DNA of 54,213 bases. Source: a virus (Duplodnaviria > Heunggongvirae > Uroviricota > Caudoviricetes). Under the pieces are notes generated by a model. That model did not search any database, was not told the origin of the DNA, and was given only the letters and a program-made list of their open reading frames with translations. Shown here piece by piece: positions 1,239 through 52,682 of the stretch (the first letter of the stretch is position 1; the number at the start of each line of letters is the position of its first letter). The DNA lies in IMG/VR virus record IMGVR_UViG_2721755676_000004; one strand, written 5' to 3'. A program made the translations under genes and the position numbers.

Positions 1239-1814
1239 CTACGGCAGTGCTGGCCATTCAATATCCTGTGAAGTTGACGTATCAACACGGTTCAGCAATA
1301 CCCGATACTTTTTCCATGCTTCCAGCAACGAGATTTCTTCCTCCGTTGCAATTTCCAGATCTGCAGCATCCTGAAGCGGCGCAATATGCTCACTGGCTAC
1401 CTGCATCAGGTTGTTTTTTGTTTCTTCCGCCTCCCGGATCCGGAACAGTTTTTCTGCTTCCGTATCCTTCACCCAGGCTGTGCCGTTCCACTTCTGAAAC
1501 TCCCCTTCCGGCGATAACCAGGTAACATTTTCCGGTAACGGACCGAGTTCAGAAATAAATAACGCGTCGCCGGAAGCCACGTCATAAACCGTTTTACCCC
1601 GATGATCTTCAACGAGATGCCACGATGCCTCATCACTGTTGAAAACAGCCACGAAGCCTGCCGGAATATCTGGCGGTGCAATATCGGTACTGTTTGCTGG
1701 CAGACCTGTATGAGGCGGAATATATGCATCACCTTCACCAATAAATTCATTAGTTCCGGCCAGCAGATTATAAATTGTTATGGTCCGTGGTTGTTCACTC
1801 ATTCTGAATACCAT
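1239..1814 (-). CDS. tfaR: Tail fibre assembly protein Tfa
   Basis: 191 aa; translation resembles lambdoid Tfa proteins; start overlaps stf stop (ATGA); immediately downstream of stf. Confidence 0.85.
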
Positions 1815-4800
1815 TATGCAAGCCTCACAATATAGTTAAATGCGATGTTTTTGACGGTGTTTTCCGCGTTACCAGCAGCGTTAACGGTGATGGTGTGTCC
1901 ATGTGAACCAATCGCAACGGAGTGCGTATGAGCACCAATACCGACAGTATGCGCGTGTGCACCTGCAGATGCTGCTGTGCCGGACAGTGAGTGGCTATGA
2001 TTACCATCTGTACTGGTATTAGCTAACCACCCCGTAGACATACCTACTGAGCCTTGTACACCCCAGGTATTTTGACCTGAGCTTGTATAACCATATTGAT
2101 AAGTATCTTTAAAAACACTGGGGTTAAATCGACGGCCATCTCTATGGCTGTGATTACCAGCTGCATTCGTGCTGCCACTTAAACTATGGGTATGCGCACC
2201 AGTGTTATTCGTGGATTTAGTGCCGTAATCAAACGACGATGTGGTTTTCGTCCCCAAATCCGTACTGGATGCGCTGGCGCTGTGGGTATGCGATTTAATG
2301 CCGTCCTGTTCCTGAGACAATACGGCCCGACCACTGGCAGGTTTGCCCTTAATCGTCCAGCCACGCATATCAGGGATCACGCCTGACGGATAAGCCGCTG
2401 CAAGTTTCGGGTATGCAGATTTGTCAAAAGTCTGCCCCTGCATCAGGGCATAGCCAGACGGAACGGTATCTGATGGCCACGGGATTGGTGCACCGACTGG
2501 ATAAAACTCTGCAGGAGGATGAGCCGAGGTGTAAAGCTGCGCCCACGGCGACCAGTTTGCGTCGGTCGTATCCCGTCGTGAACGAATAAATGCCGGAGCA
2601 TGAGCACCGCTTGTACCACTCCAGCCGATGAGTAACTCACCTTCGCCAACGGCTGTCATCCCTTTCAGGTGAATGATATTTCCATACGCTGTTGGATATC
2701 CGTTGTTATACACCTCGTATAACTCAAGACCTGTTGCCCCCTGCGTATTGTCTGTCAGCGCGGTTACCCGACCTTTTGAAGACAGATTAACTGATGATAC
2801 TGCTGTTCCACCTGACGGTAATGCCCCGATCTCTGATGCCGTTGGCTTATTTCTGGAGTTATAGTCCCTTCGCCAGCCAGGTGAATAATCTGTTCCGTGA
2901 TTAATATAGGTAAACTGGGCGTTAGTTGTTCCGCCACCAGTGGAGGTAGTCGGTGTGGTAATGCGGATCGTCATCGCTGACTTTATCCCCATTACTTCAA
3001 TGACAGCTCCTGCGAGATGAATATTACCGCAGCCAGTATCAGTAATGATTTTATTATTGCCATAAGACCAGGAACCCTTGCACATCCAGTATGGATGGTT
3101 AAATGCTCCCTGAGAATCCAGCCACTCGATAAACTGTGCAGTCGTCCAGTCTCCTGTTGTTGTGCTTACTGACCCACCGAAGGCACGGCTGGCACCAATA
3201 TTTTTCGTAAAGGTGTCTTTGCCAGGGATATCCGCACCGTTCTTATCTTTCTGCAGACGTTTCTCAGCATTGTCATTGGCTGCTTTTACTGCCTTTGGCG
3301 TTGCTGCCAGCGTTTCAGACGTGCTGTTGGTCGCGCTGCTTAGCTGGACTATCCCTTTCTGTGCTGTCGTTGCATCCTGTGCGGTGTATTTCCCGTCAGC
3401 CAGGTCATACGCGGCCTTAACTGCTTTTGGCGTTGCCGCCAGTGACTCGGAAGTGCTGTTGGTCGCACTGCTGAGCTGTACTATCCCCTTTTTCGTCGTG
3501 CTCGCATCCTCAAGCGCCACGGCGGATGCAATATCCTCTGCCCGTTTTGCCGCTGTCTCAGCGCGCGTTGCCGCGGATTCCGCCGTACTTTTGCTCTGTG
3601 CTGCCGCCGTCGCACTGCCAGCTGCCTCTGTCGCCTTCGTGGATGCTGTCGTGGCGCTGCCCTTCGCTGCTGACGCTTGTCTGGTCGCCTCATCTTTTGA
3701 AGCAGACGCAGATGATGCCGATGACGCCGCCGAACTGGCGGACGATGCGGCAGCCGTTTTTGAGGATTCTGCGCTGGTTTCCGACGCTTTCGCGTTCGTC
3801 TCGGATGTCTTCGCTGCGGAAGCAGACCTCGCTGCTGCGCTGGCCTGTTCAGTGGCTTCGCCAGCCTTCGTTGTGGCTGTTGAAGCAGACGATGCGGCAC
3901 TTTCTGCCGATTTTCCGGCGGCGGTGGCACTGGCTGAGGCCTGCCCGGCACTTGTTGACGCGGCACTGGCAGACGACGCAGCCGCTGTTTTTGAGCCTGC
4001 CGCAGCCGAGGCGCTCTGTCCCGCTGCCGTTTCAGAAGACCTGGCGTTTGTCTCAGACGTCTTTGCCGCCTTCGCGGAATTGCCTGCCGCCGTTGCCGAG
4101 GAAGCGGCACTACTGGCGCTTGATGATGCGTTCGTTTCTGATGATTTCGCTGCCTCTTTTGAGGCCGCCGCATCCCGGGCTGAGGTGGCTGCTTCTGACG
4201 CCTTCGTGGTCGCGGCGGATGCAGAAGTGGCTGCTGATTGTTGTGACGCTGCCGCATTCGTTTCTGACGTTTTCGCCGCAGCGGCACTGGTAGCTGCCGC
4301 GCTTTTTGAGGACTCTGCAGCAGCAGCACTTTTCGATGCTTCACTGGCCTTTGTTGATGCCGTTCCTGCGCTGGAAGATGCTGACTGAGCCGACGACGCG
4401 GCCTGTCCGGCTGACGTGCTGGCTGCGCGTGCTGAGCCTGCAGCATCAGTCGCATGGGTTGCCGCCTCACGTGCTGATGTGCCGGCATCGCTGGCTGACT
4501 TCTTCGCGGCTGCCGTGTTCTGTGCCACCGCGGACGCGTTACGCACCACCTCTTCCACCATCAGTTCAAAACGGCGCAGAGCCTCCGGACGGGCATCATC
4601 CTCCGTCATGGCACCGAGAAAATCATTCAGCGTACCGGGTTGAGAATCTTCATACACGGTGATGGTCCCGGCATGTGACGGCGGGAATCCTTCCACCAAC
4701 AGAATAACGCTGTACTGACCGTACTCAACGTCCATGCTGTAACGCCCGGCTTCATCCGGATTTTCTGAGGCCAGCGTGTTTACCACCACCGTGGTACTGT

Positions 4801-29802: not shown

Positions 29803-30168
29803 ATGATTGATGTCTTAGGACCGGAGAAACGCAGACGGCGTACCACACAGGAAAAGATCGCAATTGTTCAGCAGAGCTTTGAACCGGGGATGACGGTCTC
29901 CCTCGTTGCCCGGCAACATGGTGTAGCAGCCAGCCAGTTATTTCTCTGGCGTAAGCAATACCAGGAAGGAAGTCTTACTGCTGTCGCCGCCGGAGAACAG
30001 GTTGTTCCTGCCTCTGAACTTGCTGCCGCCATGAAGCAGATTAAAGAACTCCAGCGCCTGCTCGGCAAGAAAACGATGGAAAATGAACTCCTCAAAGAAG
30101 CCGTTGAATATGGACGGGCAAAAAAGTGGATAGCGCACGCGCCCTTATTGCCCGGGGATGGGGAGTAA
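29803..30168 (+). CDS. insC: IS2 transposase OrfA (InsC)
   Basis: 121 aa from [13 protein letters not shown]; HTH; A AAA AAG slippery site at 30120..30126 near its end. Confidence 0.85.
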
Positions 30169-31031
30169 GCTTAGTCAGCCGTTGTCTCCGGGTGTCGCGT
30201 GCGCAGTTGCACGTCATTCTCAGACGAACCGATGACTGGATGGATGGCCGCCGCAGTCGTCACACTGATGATACGGATGTGCTTCTCCGTATACACCATG
30301 TTATCGGAGAGCTGCCCACGTATGGTTATCGTCGGGTATGGGCGCTGCTTCGCAGACAGGCAGAACTTGATGGTATGCCTGCGATCAATGCCAAACGTGT
30401 TTACCGGATCATGCGCCAGAATGCGCTGTTGCTTGAGCGAAAACCTGCTGTACCGCCATCGAAACGGGCACATACAGGCAGAGTGGCTGTGAAAGAAAGT
30501 AATCAGCGATGGTGCTCTGACGGGTTCGAGTTCCGCTGTGATAACGGAGAAAAACTGCGAGTCACGTTCGCGCTGGACTGCTGTGACCGTGAGGCACTGC
30601 ACTGGGCGGTCACTACGGGCGGCTTCAACAGTGAAACAGTACAGGACGTCATGCTGGGAGCGGTGGAACGCCGCTTCGGCAACGAGCTTCCGGCGTCTCC
30701 AGTAGAGTGGCTGACGGATAATGGTTCATGCTACCGGGCTAATGAAACACGGCAGTTTGCCCGGATGTTGGGGCTTGAACCGAAGAGCACGGCGGTGCGG
30801 AGTCCGGAGAGTAACGGCATAGCAGAGAGCTTCGTGAAAACGATAAAGCGTGACTACATCAGTGTCATGCCCAAACCAGACGGGTTAACGGCAGCAAAGA
30901 ACCTTGCAGAGGCGTTCGAGCATTATAACGAATGGCATCCGCATAGTGCACTGGGTTATCGCTCGCCACGGGAATATCTACGGCAGCAAGCCAGTAATGG
31001 GTTAAGTGATAACAGGTGTCTGGAAATATAG
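30126..31031 (+). CDS. insD: IS2 transposase OrfB (InsD), DDE catalytic domain
   Basis: 301 aa in the -1 frame relative to insC; rve/DDE-type integrase core. Confidence 0.85.
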
Positions 31032-31042
31032 GGGCAAATCCA

Positions 31043-31315
31043 TTTGATGTACGGGTTAATTTGTCTGGCGACCGTGGCAAGGTCTTTATTCAAGAGTGTT
31101 TTGCATTCTGCTTTGGTATACGTTTTACCGAGCATGATGTCTTTTCCTGTATGCCCGTGACATACAGTCCATACACCAACAATATCTTTGTATGGTATGT
31201 AGCTGACACCTTCCAGACCATCGTTACCACTTGGGCCAGTGATTAACACTGATGCTATAGCAATTGCTCCGCCACCAATAGCAGCAGCAACGACTTTTCG
31301 TAATGATGGAGGCAT
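31043..31315 (-). pseudogene. SAR endolysin, N-terminal fragment (IS2-disrupted)
   Basis: [27 protein letters not shown]... signal-anchor-release domain as in phage 21 R; frame continues into IS2 right end after INPYIK. Confidence 0.85.
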
Positions 31316-32327: not shown

Positions 32328-32756
32328 TCAGGGTTTAAAATCCAGCACCCCATTTTGAAATACTTTATATACTTCCGGCGAAGGGGGGGCAGGTATATCA
32401 GCATTCTTTATCGCATTCATCGCTTCACGACATAAATCGAGGTCTCCACTTTCTCTTTTAACCTCCAGTAGAAGGCCATTCGGGGCCATATGCATTCTCA
32501 GTGTACACTCTTTTCCTGAATACTTACTCGCATCCCCGAACTGTTTTTCGATGGCGCTCTTGATTTGATGGGCATACAGACGGATATCCTCACTAACATC
32601 AGAAGTACGTTCAGATGAACTCACATACTGTGTCTCTATTGCTTTATCGGAGTAATATGATGTACGGTCATGATAATTTGTCGATACAGCATCAGTGCAC
32701 CCGATAATAATCCCACTAATAATCAACGTAAGAATTGATGCGCTACGAAAACCCAT
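32328..32756 (-). CDS. Lipoprotein with TolA domain III-like C-terminal domain (paralog 2)
   Basis: 142 aa; lipobox IIIGC; C-terminal YAHQIKSAIEKQFGDASKYSGKECTLRMHMAPNGLLLEV...PPSPEVYKVFQNGVLDFKP closely resembles the E. coli TolA C-terminus as I remember it. Confidence 0.7.
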   Translation of the reverse strand: MGFRSASILTLIISGIIIGCTDAVSTNYHDRTSYYSDKAIETQYVSSSERTSDVSEDIRLYAHQIKSAIEKQFGDASKYSGKECTLRMHMAPNGLLLEVKRESGDLDLCREAMNAIKNADIPAPPSPEVYKVFQNGVLDFKP

Positions 32757-33344
32757 TTTTCCTCACATATGTCATATAGTAAAGGATTATATATACCGTT
32801 GTTTTGGACGCTCAAACAGCGAATCAGATCAAATAAAACGCACATTTGTTAACATTTACACAAAGTCTGCGTGGGATATTCTGAAAGAATATCCATAATG
32901 TGGATAGAATCTATTGAAGTGCATGGTGCCGGGTGCCTCCCGGTGAACAAAATGTTCGTGATACCTGTCGGCGACAGAAAAGGTTAATGGTATCACCCCA
33001 CCGCACAGGGGGATTCACCATGCAGGAGTTTTCTTAGCAAACTCACTGCGCGCCCGGCAACTCCCAACCACATAAAATGCGGAGTTTGTGGTATTTATGC
33101 ATATAACTCGCAGGAATTATCTTAAAAAACTGATGTCGATCCGGATTAAAAAGAAGCAGGTCATCATCAGATGACTGGAAAAAAGGAAAACAAAAAATAC
33201 TCATCATACAGTTTTGATTGCAGGGATGAGCCTGCTATGCACAATATGCAGAATATAAGCAAGATAAAAATATGCAGGCATATTATTTCGGATTTTGTTA
33301 TTAACACAACCTTTTTAATAATCATTTGGCATACAATAAACCAG

Positions 33345-33373
33345 CCCAAAAAGAACCGCCTAAACAGGCGGTT
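33345..33373 (-). terminator. Rho-independent terminator candidate in Q-to-lysis spacer
   Basis: AACCGCCT-loop-AGGCGGTT hairpin followed by CTTTTTGGG on the minus strand; a TATAAT hexamer lies ~40 nt upstream on the same strand. Confidence 0.4.
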
Positions 33374-33693
33374 GGTCAATACAAAGGATGCTTCGTCTTT
33401 ATTATAGTAATCTGAGGCGTCGGGTGTCTTGTATCAGACAACATATTGTCCCGCTAAACAGCGAATTACAAACCACCCTGCAATGATCTCTCATCTCATT
33501 TTATATGAGTTGACGACATCAGGATAACGCATCATCAGCCCCTGCCAAGAAATATCAAAACTCCCGCCAGCAATGTGTTATCACAATATTGTAAAAAAAA
33601 CACAGCACCGAAACTATAACTGGTCTCTGTTATAATTTGGAGCAGAAAGACCAGTTGCCCAACTAGCAGCATTCTCCCCTGCTTTCCTGACGT

Positions 33694-33722
33694 AAAAAAA
33701 CCGCATTAAGCGGTTTTTTTAC
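33694..33722. terminator. Bidirectional terminator-like hairpin downstream of Q-like gene
   Basis: AAAAAAACCGCATTAAGCGGTTTTTTT: short GC stem flanked by A-run and T-run. Confidence 0.45.
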
Positions 33723-33800
33723 GATGTCCATGTCTGCAATCCGCCTCGCGATACAGCTTTGCGAAGCATAGCAAAATTGAAGCAGTTTATACGTAAGAAA

Positions 33801-34343
33801 TCAAGCCATTTTCTCAGCAAATGATTCACGCATGGGAATATATAGGGCATACTCAGCAACAGCTAACCAATTAGCAATCCGTTTTTCGCATGTGCTAAAA
33901 CACCACTCTGGGTGTGCATCATTTAGCAATTCAGCCATTTTGCGCTTAGTCATCCCCCGCCCTTCATAGCGTTGCCGGAGAATGCAAATCAATCCTGGAT
34001 GCTCTGCCAGCACCTCACTTATGACTCGATCAATACATAACGCCTCTGCATCAGTACAATGCGCCAGCCAGCTCTTTTGCTTGCCGTTGATCATCTCTCG
34101 CAAAAACGCTTCCAGCTCAGCTTTCTCTATTCCCGCTTTTTTCATTCTGCGCAGGGCTTCATTAATGGCTGTTTTCGTCAGTTTTTTGGATGCCAACAAC
34201 TGATTGAACATATTCCCTGACCTGCCACCGCCAATATACGACCAGCGCCCCCACATACGTAGTTTTCCCTGAATCCAGACACTTTCCAGCGTGGTGAGGC
34301 GAAGGTGTTCTCCGCTTTTTCCTGTATTCGTTGGGTAAATCAT
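33801..34343 (-). CDS. Putative late-gene antiterminator (Q-like by position)
   Basis: 180-aa basic protein immediately upstream of terminator/promoter-like spacer and lysis genes; family not confirmed; start may be internal. Confidence 0.4.
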   Translation of the reverse strand: MIYPTNTGKSGEHLRLTTLESVWIQGKLRMWGRWSYIGGGRSGNMFNQLLASKKLTKTAINEALRRMKKAGIEKAELEAFLREMINGKQKSWLAHCTDAEALCIDRVISEVLAEHPGLICILRQRYEGRGMTKRKMAELLNDAHPEWCFSTCEKRIANWLAVAEYALYIPMRESFAEKMA

Positions 34344-52285: not shown

Positions 52286-52480
52286 ATGAGATATGACAAT
52301 GTTAAACCATGTCCATTTTGTGGTTGTCCATCAGTAACGGTGAAAGCCATTTCAGGATATTACCGAGCGAAGTGTAACGGATGCGAATCCCGAACCGGTT
52401 ATGGTGGAAGTGAAAAAGAAGCACTCGAAAGATGGAATAAACGAACCACTGGAAATAATAATGGAGGTGTTCATGTATAA
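52286..52480 (+). CDS. ralR: RalR (Lar) restriction-alleviation / DNase toxin protein
   Basis: 64 aa from MRYDNVKPCPFCGCPSVTV; Cys4 motif. Confidence 0.7.
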   Translation: MRYDNVKPCPFCGCPSVTVKAISGYYRAKCNGCESRTGYGGSEKEALERWNKRTTGNNNGGVHV

Positions 52481-52682
52481 AATTACCGCCACTATTGAAA
52501 AGGAAGGTGGCACTCCTACTAACTGGACAAGATATTCAAAATCTAAACTAACGAAATCAGAATGCGAAAAAATGCTCTCAGGTAAAAAAGAAGCAGGCGT
52601 TTCCAGAGAGCAGAAAGTAAAACTGATAAATTTTAATTGCGAGAAACTTCAGTCCTCGAGAATTGCATTGTATTCAAATTAA
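52473..52682 (+). CDS. Small protein (69 aa), YdaC-like
   Basis: GGAGGTG SD before ATG at 52473; overlaps ralR end. Confidence 0.5.
   Translation: MYKITATIEKEGGTPTNWTRYSKSKLTKSECEKMLSGKKEAGVSREQKVKLINFNCEKLQSSRIALYSN

Follow-up and report, generated by a model that had tools for sequence, protein, structure and literature searches.

What fills a gap of more than 1 kb in the late operon of a prophage, and does it take part in the control of the genes behind it? This question is raised by a 54,213-nt stretch of viral DNA (the window), in which a Q-like gene is separated from the next gene of its strand by 1044 nt, counted from the Q-like stop codon (TGA, 33803-33801) to the start codon of a lipoprotein gene (ATG, 32756-32754). 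The original prediction, made without database searches, had described an approximately 1-kb non-coding gap between these genes, and this description was confirmed, as neither a conserved open reading frame nor a tRNA was found in the 1044 nt. All spacer features noted at that time lie on the minus strand, which is the late-operon strand and carries, in this order, genes for DUF1367, YbcO and DUF1133 proteins, the spacer, two TolA-C lipoprotein genes, a phage 21-type holin gene and a lysozyme gene cut by IS2.

With a probability of about 0.75, we read the spacer as an ordinary non-coding late-operon leader of a lambdoid prophage at the Rac site of E. coli, built from known types of modules. 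It does not constitute a novel type of element and leaves the current view of lambdoid late regulation unchanged. The spacer had also been called much longer than usual. Its length is indeed unusual but can be accounted for, because a tR' module, a non-coding segment found behind the tRNA array in related loci, and an STnc100 unit are joined here. Sequence features, their conservation, and the families to which the Q protein and the STnc100 copy belong are observed directly. The letter by Jobling on Rac prophages contains nothing on the late region.

A proposed control region at the DUF1133 stop codon

The Q-like gene (33801-34343, minus strand) encodes a protein of 180 amino acids that matches Pfam family DUF1133 with 356 bits and PF06530 (Phage_antitermQ) with 26.1 bits, against a cut-off of 26. 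When a profile of seven homologues was searched against the PDB, the structures of the phage 21 Q protein (Q21; 6p18/6jnx) were retrieved with E=5e-8, covering residues 95-177 and 14-52. By these comparisons, the DUF1133 protein and the Q21 antiterminator are distantly homologous. Several phage records label the DUF1133 protein "antitermination protein Q", and a literature search on DUF1133 yielded no paper mentioning the family or showing antitermination by one of its members.

A candidate late promoter, pR' (33776-33804, minus strand), was located by comparing 39 distinct sequences 3' of DUF1133 genes. Its -35 hexamer TTGATT (33804-33799) overlaps the Q stop codon TGA and is followed, after a 17-nt spacer, by the -10 hexamer TTCAAT (33781-33776). 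A hexamer pair of matching position and spacing occurs 3' of every DUF1133 gene examined, for instance TTGACT-16-TATAGT in Providencia, TTGACA-16-TAGTAT in Edwardsiella, TTGATT-17-TATCTT in Rac-SA53 and TTGCTT-17-TTCAAT in O157. The TTCAAT of the E. coli variants lacks the critical A at -11, and pR' is absent from the promoter-scan list. Hence, the start site is uncertain by about 10 nt, and the hexamer TATGCT further downstream could be the real -10.

Inside the pR' spacer lies a conserved block, TTACGTATAAAC (33785-33796, minus strand), as a candidate Q-binding element. The pattern TTAC(C)G-A-AAA(C/G) is retained 3' of Q proteins that are just 31-43% identical to that of the window, and the block is found about one promoter spacing 5' of TATGCT, the position expected for a QBE according to the published architecture (bioRxiv 10.1101/651190). 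From its position and conservation, this block probably binds Q. TATGCT itself (33765-33770, minus strand; approximately +1 to +6) is a candidate sigma-dependent pause element, which probably pauses sigma-bound polymerase; the variants from E. coli, Providencia, Edwardsiella and Rac-SA53 have TAnGCT or TAAGAT at the matching place (with ambiguous loci in Klebsiella). Its alternative role as the true -10 is suggested because TGCTATGCT reads as an extended -10. Among IMG/VR loci with a Q protein 93-100% identical to that of the window, the first part of the sequence behind the stop codon is kept in 80 of 80 cases (57-59 nt where the DNA suffices), and the rest of the spacer in only 24 of these 80.

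Right after the Q stop codon, an A-run/hairpin/T-run terminator had been predicted, and sequence, fold and comparison bear out its presence at 33694-33720 (AAAAAAACCGC-TTAAT-GCGGTTTTTTT). With the layout A7-CCGC-TTAAT-GCGG-T7 from 33720 to 33694, it is palindromic with A and T runs and, thus, formally bidirectional. It would not, however, merely be the terminator of the Q gene: since the candidate late promoter is situated at the Q stop codon, the hairpin is read as tR', ending a leader RNA of about 75 nt from pR'. The terminator scan did not list tR', probably because its stem runs into the A and T runs, leaving no T tail for the scan rule. A GC hairpin followed by a U run occurs at the same distance in 39 of 39 unique variants, including those of Providencia, Edwardsiella and Klebsiella phages, with at least seven different stems.

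The predicted leader RNA (33694-33769, minus strand) would have a length of approximately 72-76 nt and resemble 6S, StxS and IsrK RNAs, combining a 5' hairpin (33767-33743) with the terminator hairpin. For the 83-nt stretch 33772-33690, an MFE of -33.1 kcal/mol was calculated (z=-4.9). The Rfam isrK model matches the leader in full length, with both hairpins aligned and a start at 33767, at 21.6 bits against a threshold of 50; as this score is below threshold, the leader RNA is not filed as an isrK member. Identity with IsrK was rejected on the basis of this sub-threshold match and because AntQ of Gifsy-1 (STM2617), unlike the Q protein of the window, is annotated as phage 82-type and not as DUF1133. 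Further Rfam matches at tR' to Thr, Leu and Trp leaders, AgrB and OrzO-P were discarded as terminator-driven noise.

A candidate unit for an antisense small RNA (33628-33720, plus strand) reads towards the same hairpin from the other side. Motif and fold suggest an extended -10 TGTTATAAT at 33628-33636, a start at about 33640-33642 and an RNA of some 80 nt up to the bidirectional terminator. The sequence TGNTATAAT is unique in the 54-kb window with both strands counted, and the 83-nt plus-strand RNA folds into a 5' hairpin and the terminator with -28.4 kcal/mol (z=-6.1). Hence, TGTTATAAT may drive an antisense RNA of about 80 nt ending at the tR' hairpin. Because this RNA and the PR' leader RNA share the bidirectional terminator, their two 3' ends would be complementary.

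Taken as a candidate promoter region, this arrangement corresponds to the cassettes PR'-6S RNA-tR' of lambda and PR'21 of phage 21, which likewise have a promoter directly behind the gene of a Q homologue, a -10-like element among the first bases of the transcript and an intrinsic terminator within about 80 nt, with morons and lysis genes next on the same strand. The general order of Q gene, PR', SDPE, terminator and late genes has been described (bioRxiv 10.1101/651190). The Q protein is also detectably homologous to Q21 (6p18/6jnx). The locus differs from both phages in that its Q protein belongs to Pfam DUF1133, an experimentally uncharacterised branch, that the -35 overlaps its own Q stop codon, and that the E. 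coli variants have a weak -10. Additionally, the candidate block TTACGnATAAAC displays no clear direct repeat, in contrast to the Q21 site with its direct repeat of 8-bp subsites. A predicted short RNA running from a promoter just 3' of Q to the first terminator has counterparts in StxS of Stx phages (PMC7547250) and IsrK of Gifsy-1 (RF01394, PMC4825925), the latter also sharing the two-hairpin architecture. In the O157 relatives, the succession of DUF1133 gene, short RNA, small ORF and HTH protein mirrors antQ-isrK-orf45-anrP. The O157/O111 prophages carry two extra genes between the DUF1133 cassette and the tRNAs, which counts against our explanation.

A Q cassette at the DUF1133 stop codon would, hence, consist of the promoter (33804-33776), the Q-binding block, the pause element and tR' (33720-33694). 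In the lysogen, it would yield only the RNA of about 75 nt. With Q present, polymerase would undergo modification at the cassette and then pass tR' and the terminators behind it to reach the lipoprotein and lysis genes. Where transcription starts, and that polymerase pauses, Q binds and the terminators are read through, is inferred.

The post-tRNA segment, the STnc100 copy and the moron boundary

In M15, E22, ETEC1749 and about 24 viral loci, a tRNA array is located between tR' and the segment starting with t2. The window thereby has the same flanks as the tRNA-array loci of Stx and other lambdoid prophages (Ile-Arg-Arg, Ile-Arg-Thr-Gly), with tR' upstream and t2-P2-t3-t4 downstream, but differs from them in that the array itself is absent. 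ARAGORN found 0 tRNA genes in the whole window and Rfam none, in agreement with the earlier remark that the spacer contains no tRNA-like structures. Homology with the relatives resumes at the T-run of tR', the position of the gap being set by inspection and anchored comparison rather than by a MAFFT alignment. A tRNA remnant was searched for by short-word BLAST with the tRNAs of six relatives against the spacer; the only hit, a 12-nt identity to tRNA-Gly, does not extend and is probably due to chance. The post-tRNA segment (33693-33090) would, on this comparison, abut tR' directly and add three more hairpin/U-run terminators, t2, t3 and t4.

The first conserved island of this segment is t2 (33593-33627, minus strand), a weak hairpin followed by U8 with 89% identity to E22 compared to 60% background, whose stem GAGAC/GUUUC is changed to GAGGC/GCCUC in M15. 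It is followed by P2 (33401-33430, minus strand), a promoter-like site AAGACA-18-TATAAT from the promoter scan. Its -10 (33406-33401) is the TATAAT which the original prediction had pointed out. At P2, TATAATAA is invariant across four diverged lineages, with a poor -35 in all of them, and the P2 block as a whole is just 66% identical to E22 compared to 60% background. The second hairpin of the original prediction is t3 (33348-33373, minus strand), identified by scan and fold as an intrinsic terminator with an 8-bp stem (-12.4 kcal/mol) and composed of AACCGCCTGTTTAGGCGGTT and CTTTTT (33373-33348); E22 retains both hairpin and U run but differs in the loop. Both the TATAAT and the hairpin with its T-tract are, thus, present as predicted, but 28 nt apart instead of about 40. 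P2-t3 is considered a separate mini-unit, whose TATAAT may drive a candidate RNA of about 47 nt ending at t3. A wider search of IMG/VR for this unit yielded only two alleles, a number that does not allow covariation statistics. Finally, t4 (33148-33177, minus strand; scan and fold) is a hairpin followed by CUUCUUUUU, and the corresponding position of E22 has a different and stronger stem, GCCAGCCA/UGGCUGGC with U7 (-16.5 kcal/mol).

The suggestion that the spacer may hold a small RNA proved correct, although at a site that had been missed (33053-32865): the covariance-model scan with Rfam, which had been proposed as a check, gave a match to STnc100 above threshold and no tRNA. This STnc100 member (RF02076; 32865-33053, minus strand) scores 85.6 bits against a gathering threshold of 47 over the full model positions 1-206 (E=2e-18; whole-window E=6e-17). 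The RNA itself probably extends from 33023 to about 32831, comprising a core multi-helix domain (33023-32921), a hairpin towards the 3' end (32894-32874) and, last, a weak hairpin of terminator-like type with UUUUAUUU (32871-32831). The core folds with -50.4 kcal/mol (z=-4.1). In the cmscan alignment, its 5' domain is closed by GCAUGGUG/CACCAUGC, and an independent MFE fold resulted in the same closing helix with internal hairpins. The 3' hairpin of the model does form but, unlike in the STnc100 model, is followed by CACGCAG without a U tract; the hairpin with UUUUAUUU, 40 nt later, is weaker (-9.3 kcal/mol). Since Rfam formally decides family membership by the gathering score, we count the copy as a member whose 3' end is atypical.

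Upstream of this core, comparison revealed a candidate promoter (33031-33060, minus strand) with -35 TTGCCG, an 18-nt spacer and -10 TAAGAA (preceded by TGC), 7 nt from G33023. The geometry TTGnCn, 17-18 nt, TAnnnn and 6-7 nt to the G of GCAUGG is common to seven copies, including PasD1 and PasD2, for which this G is the reported 5' end (coordinates in PMC8550237, table S6). The unit is a small RNA gene of the STnc100/PasD family, predicted to have its own promoter (33060-33031) and an RNA starting from G33023. Against the STnc100 model, PasD reaches 38-41 bits (below threshold), and a relation of the two is in line with bioRxiv 10.64898/2026.05.13.724894. With STnc100, PasD1, PasD2 and EcOnc27, the copy shares the full-length model match, the GCAUGGUGAAUCC...CACCAUGC multi-helix 5' domain and the promoter geometry, as well as, with STnc100, PasD and EcOnc27, its place between Q and lysis genes at a moron boundary. 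In its 3' part, with seed region and terminator, it shows no relation to PasD, and by BLAST only the first 17 nt of PasD are in common with the spacer; PasA and PasC (E2348/69, published coordinates) display no similarity to it. STnc100 copies are expressed in EDL933 (PMC5331693), and expression or Hfq association has been reported for other copies (PMC5331693, PMC8550237, PMC12711010). The three copies of M15 and that of O157 are also situated at moron boundaries, and homology of the window to other prophages ends inside the STnc100 unit.

Morons of lambdoid phages are accessory genes of the late region that are transcribed independently. Here, the first gene for a lipoprotein with a TolA C-terminal domain (32328-32756, minus strand; Pfam TolA 82.6 bits, tolA-like in RefSeq) forms the downstream boundary of the spacer. 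It is preceded by a promoter-like site, TTGAGC-18-TATAAT (32786-32815, minus strand; consensus match), followed by the RBS GAGGA and ATG 32756, so the moron may have its own promoter at 32815-32786. A terminator follows the second lipoprotein gene (31656-31639, consensus match only), and the phage 21-type holin gene (31587-31315) and the lysozyme gene lie beyond, both on the minus strand. With a promoter-like site upstream and a terminator downstream, the TolA-C lipoprotein pair, hence, resembles other lambdoid morons.

Competing readings of the spacer

Apart from tR', the spacer could be inert, made up of the deletion scar of a former tRNA region and an STnc100 copy in decay, with hairpins and hexamers that have no function today. 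This is unlikely in our view, even though the missing tRNA array and the non-canonical 3' end of the STnc100 copy would fit and background identity to other lineages amounts to just 60-68%. Moreover, about 445 complete E. coli genomes carry the spacer in near-identical form, with no annotation within it, which would reflect recent ancestry and not selection. Motif counts do not exceed chance either: TATAAT occurs three times (1.4 expected), terminator-like sites number 3 (2.1+/-1.4 expected) and promoter-like sites 10 (5.4+/-2.4 expected). With the counts themselves at chance level, significance can come only from the comparison with related loci. There, however, t2, t3 and t4 retain a hairpin and U run across lineages despite changed stems or loops. 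Furthermore, the STnc100 core is intact with conserved promoter geometry, and STnc100 copies elsewhere are expressed (PMC5331693).

Alternatively, the hairpin at 33720-33694 might simply end the Q or early transcript, with the TATAAT at 33406-33401 as the late promoter of a transcript of about 47 nt, which ends at 33373-33348 unless Q extends it. In favour of this very improbable reading speak the perfect TATAAT and the good terminator behind it, both retained in four diverged lineages. In relatives, however, the P2-t3 unit is located 300-400 nt past the tRNA array and up to about 1 kb from Q, and a lambda-type Q gene can also precede it. Its occurrence therefore does not follow the type of Q, whereas the approximately 59 nt adjoining the stop codon vary together with the DUF1133 gene. 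Q proteins load beside their own gene (bioRxiv 10.1101/651190), and the interval between TATAAT and t3 contains neither a -10-like pause element nor a conserved Q-type block. About 400 nt from Q, and beyond the tRNA array in relatives, this TATAAT can thus hardly be the Q-loading promoter. What survives of the late promoter in the original prediction is the type of leader, with a short terminated transcript that Q could extend; the elements had been assigned wrongly, the candidate promoter being that at the Q stop codon.

A hidden small protein gene, such as the 78-aa ORF at 33171-33407 (plus strand) or the 70-aa ORF at 33379-33167 (minus strand), is hardly conceivable: the 78-aa ORF has a weak PHROG match (phrog_8279, E=0.023) and same-frame ORFs in M15 and E22, but each lineage has a different start codon and N-terminus, a frameshift separates the closely related E22 and ETEC1749 within the ORF, its conserved C-terminal residues are merely the antisense of the t3 hairpin, Pfam gave no matches for spacer ORFs and RefSeq annotates nothing in the spacer. 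The seven spacer ORFs yielded noise-level matches only against PHROGs and Pfam, and none is conserved in relatives. The degraded moron that had been suspected in the spacer was likewise not found, since the elements present are of RNA level only and include no degraded protein-coding gene.

A possible antiterminator branch and its natural variants

Preferring the reading as an ordinary late-operon leader, one may tentatively go further. DUF1133 might constitute an uncharacterised branch of Q21-like antiterminators with its own loading site, made up of the stop-codon-fused -35, the TTACGnATAAAC block and the TAnGCT pause element. At the same time, the leader might encode two undescribed small RNAs of the lysogen, the P2-t3 RNA of about 47 nt and the plus-strand RNA of about 80 nt from the only TGnTATAAT of the window. 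We regard this combination as possible rather than probable.

For annotation, the value of the locus is that an unannotated spacer holds the predicted control point of late and lysis gene expression of the prophage, along with a member of a widespread family of prophage small RNAs. With approximately 59 nt linked to the DUF1133 gene, followed by exchangeable terminators, tRNA arrays and morons, these loci form a natural set of variants for site recognition by a relative of Q21.

A probable Q cassette at the DUF1133 stop codon

The window is an E. coli prophage of the lambdoid type, located at the Rac/trkG site. It carries RalA, the RNA antitoxin of RalR in Rac prophages, and in identical RefSeq copies trkG adjoins the lysis genes; an Rfam scan of the whole window gave RalA at 52479-52657 (-) with 225 bits and IS009 at 1273-1471 (-) with 221 bits. 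Its late region, on the minus strand, runs from DUF1367 (35229-34630) through YbcO/DUF1364 (34630-34340) and the Q-like DUF1133 gene (34343-33801) into a spacer of 1044 nt, followed by two TolA C-terminal-domain lipoproteins (32756-32328 and 32177-31782) and a phage 21-type holin (31587-31315). Downstream of the holin, the lysozyme gene (30956-31315, minus strand) is split by an IS2 orfB-type transposase gene (30126-31031, plus strand) and, hence, the lysis cassette is probably defective. A full-length copy of the spacer is found in about 445 of 5426 complete E. coli genomes, mostly with at least 99% identity; RefSeq annotates nothing inside it.

Pfam assigns the Q-like protein to DUF1133 over its full length (356 bits), and its score for PF06530, to which Q21 belongs (bioRxiv 10.1101/651190), is only just at the threshold. 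When seven homologues from phages of E. coli, Klebsiella, Providencia and Edwardsiella were combined into a profile (alignment A2), the Q21 structures 6p18/6jnx came up at E=5e-8 as the sole match of note, and the Q-like assignment in the original prediction therefore holds. The literature searched makes no mention of DUF1133, so that antitermination by this family is putative.

The DNA 3' of DUF1133 stop codons was compared in nine annotated records and 80 IMG/VR loci. Its first part is retained in all 80 viral loci (Q 93-100% identical) at 83-100% identity and spans 57-59 nt in loci with enough DNA, while the remainder of the spacer is present in only 24 of the 80, the others diverging sharply past about 59 nt. 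All 39 distinct variants place a GC-rich hairpin with a trailing U run at the same distance from the stop, and its stem comes in at least seven different sequences (ACCGC/GCGGU, CCACC/GGUGG, AACCCGC/GCGGGUU, GCCCGC/GCGGGU, CCUCGC/GCGGGG and GCCCAAGG/CCUUGGGC, for example). Upstream of the hairpin on the minus strand, a -35-like hexamer TTGATT (33804-33799) overlaps the Q stop codon and is followed after 16-17 nt by a -10-like hexamer TTCAAT (33781-33776), with TATAGT (Providencia), TAGTAT (Edwardsiella) and TATCTT (Rac-SA53) as counterparts. The block TTACGTATAAAC between both hexamers (33796-33785) persists at Q protein identities as low as 31-43%, and a further -10-like hexamer (TATGCT, 33770-33765; general form TAnGCT) lies at about +1 to +6. 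This layout would match the published architecture of a Q cassette, where the Q gene comes first, then PR' with its sigma-dependent pause element, and then a terminator ahead of the late genes (bioRxiv 10.1101/651190). On these grounds, the first hairpin (33720-33694) is best read as the terminator tR', which would end a leader transcript of about 75 nt. The palindrome A7-CCGC-TTAAT-GCGG-T7 at this place was confirmed, and the 83-nt stretch containing it folds with -33.1 kcal/mol (z=-4.9); the terminator scan did not list it, probably because its stem runs into the A and T runs. Since TTCAAT lacks the -11 A and TGCTATGCT itself could act as an extended -10, the leader start can be placed only to within about 10 nt, which does not affect where the unit lies. 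A late promoter with a short terminated transcript, as originally proposed for the spacer, was right in spirit, but the promoter probably lies at the Q stop and not at the TATAAT at 33406.

Comparable by-product RNAs are StxS of Stx phages (PMC7547250) and IsrK, a short RNA just 3' of Gifsy-1 antQ (PMC4825925). The Rfam isrK model aligns to the leader at full length, covering the 5' hairpin from 33767 and the terminator, with a sub-threshold 21.6 bits vs 50, and the annotation of AntQ (STM2617) likens it to phage 82 Q. Membership in isrK was therefore dropped, the likeness being one of position and shape. The Gifsy-1 order antQ-isrK-orf45-anrP is paralleled in E. coli O157:H7 (2679-3655 of its locus) and O111 (2744-3719), where the DUF1133 gene and short-RNA module precede a 65-aa ORF, a 237-aa HTH protein and then tRNAs.

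Missing tRNA array and the segment beyond it

E. coli M15 shares the Q gene and the lipoprotein gene with the window, and its spacer of 1574 nt carries tRNA-Ile, Arg, Thr and Gly directly after tR'. In E22 and ETEC1749, lambda-type Q genes and tRNA arrays are followed by a non-coding segment of about 1.1 kb, which is 60% identical to window 33640-33141, and tRNAs stand at the corresponding place in about 24 of the viral loci. Homology of the window to these post-tRNA segments restarts exactly at the T run of tR', so that the tR' module is joined straight to the post-tRNA segment, without an array. The reported absence of tRNA-like structures was borne out, with zero tRNAs in the entire window. 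A 12-nt exact match to the M15 array tRNA-Gly (GCTGATGATGCG, 33539-33528) without extension scores only just above every shuffled control and is probably due to chance. The E22/ETEC1749 segment holds a tRNA 3'-half-like stretch (GGTTCGAGTCCCCGGTGACGGTCCA, within 2418-3514 of the E22 locus), apparently a decayed or partial tRNA, which is not found in the window.

Several features of the segment are kept across three lineages. These are the weak hairpin with U8 t2 (33627-33593, 89% identical to E22; stem GAGAC/GUUUC in the window, GAGGC/GCCUC in M15), the invariant TATAATAA (33406-33399), the terminator t3 (33373-33348) and the hairpin with U run t4 (33177-33148, with a different, stronger stem in E22), all on the minus strand. 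Both elements noted originally are present, the perfect TATAAT (33406-33401, listed as AAGACA-18-TATAAT) and the T-tract hairpin t3, which has an 8-bp GC stem. Counts of TATAAT (3 vs 1.4 expected) and terminator-like sites (3 vs 2.1±1.4) are unremarkable alone, and their meaning depends on comparison with related loci. In relatives, this TATAAT stands past the tRNA array and accompanies unrelated Q types, which rules it out as the Q-loading promoter. The predicted RNA of about 47 nt from TATAAT to t3 has a poor -35, only two alleles in the IMG/VR scan and no matching Rfam family; its chance of being a small RNA is put at slightly below even.

No hidden gene, such as the degraded moron also considered originally, came to light, seven spacer ORFs giving only noise against PHROGs and Pfam. 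The best of them (78 aa, 33171-33407, plus strand), antisense to the leader, weakly matches phrog_8279 (E=0.023). It was rejected as a gene, because its starts differ per lineage and a frameshift sets E22 apart from ETEC1749, to which it is otherwise nearly identical; the conserved C-terminal end simply reflects the opposite strand of the t3 hairpin.

A small RNA of the STnc100/PasD family

The alternative suggestion of a small RNA in the spacer fared better, as a covariance-model scan located STnc100 (RF02076) at 33053-32865 (-), with 85.6 bits over the full model vs a gathering score of 47. Prophages carry this sRNA in multiple copies: of the 11 in EDL933, most gave RNA-seq reads and a Northern blot confirmed one (PMC5331693). 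A copy found 75 nt 3' of stx2B overlaps in part with the Hfq-binding EcOnc27 (PMC12370729, PMC12711010). Relatives of the family are the Hfq-dependent PasD1/PasD2 of EPEC (bioRxiv 10.64898/2026.05.13.724894; PMC8550237), whose sequences, extracted via published coordinates, share the 5' start GCATGGTGAATCC with the window copy and match the model with 38-41 bits. Seven aligned copies (window, three of M15, O157, PasD1 and PasD2) all display a -35 TTGnCn, 17-18 nt, a -10 TAnnnn and 6-7 nt before the G of GCAUGG, the reported PasD 5' end. This places the predicted promoter of the window copy at 33060-33055 (-35) and 33036-33031 (-10), with a predicted start at G33023. The 5' domain (33023-32921) adopts the expected multi-helix junction fold (z=-4.1), whereas the 3' part deviates from PasD as well as from the Rfam consensus: no U's follow the last model hairpin (32894-32874), and a weaker hairpin with UUUUAUUU lies 3' of it at 32871-32831. 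Because of this departure, the window allele is a putative Hfq-type sRNA.

In M15, STnc100 copies at 1440-1647, 1698-1902 and 2624-2797 of the locus bracket the TolA-like lipoprotein gene, and the single O157 copy (607-779) precedes an esterase gene, each with promoter-like geometry of its own. For several other prophages and phage mEp460_ev081, the match to the window (99% or more) stops at 32947, within the STnc100 unit and just upstream of the conserved CCGGGAGGCACCCGG hairpin, which suggests that the element acts as a recombination joint between mosaic prophages. Thus, it marks moron boundaries and mosaic joints.

Moron boundary and a candidate antisense RNA

As expected for a moron, a promoter-like TTGAGC-18-TATAAT (32815-32786, -) lies ahead of the lipoprotein genes and a terminator (31656-31639, -) after the second. 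The extended -10 TGNTATAAT occurs only once in the 54-kb window, either strand counted, as TGTTATAAT (33628-33636, +); it faces the bidirectional terminator from 58 nt upstream. The antisense RNA of about 80 nt predicted from this unit (33628-33720, +) would be strongly structured, with a 5' hairpin and the terminator (-28.4 kcal/mol, z=-6.1), and this candidate would give purpose to the terminator's bidirectionality.

Overall, the region is an ordinary late-operon leader made of known kinds of parts. These are a probable Q cassette from an unstudied, Q21-related family, further terminators, an STnc100/PasD-family sRNA and a moron promoter, and the tRNA array is missing. The modest remaining novelty would lie in a candidate loading site for DUF1133 and in two candidate small RNAs, the TATAAT-t3 RNA and the plus-strand RNA of about 80 nt.
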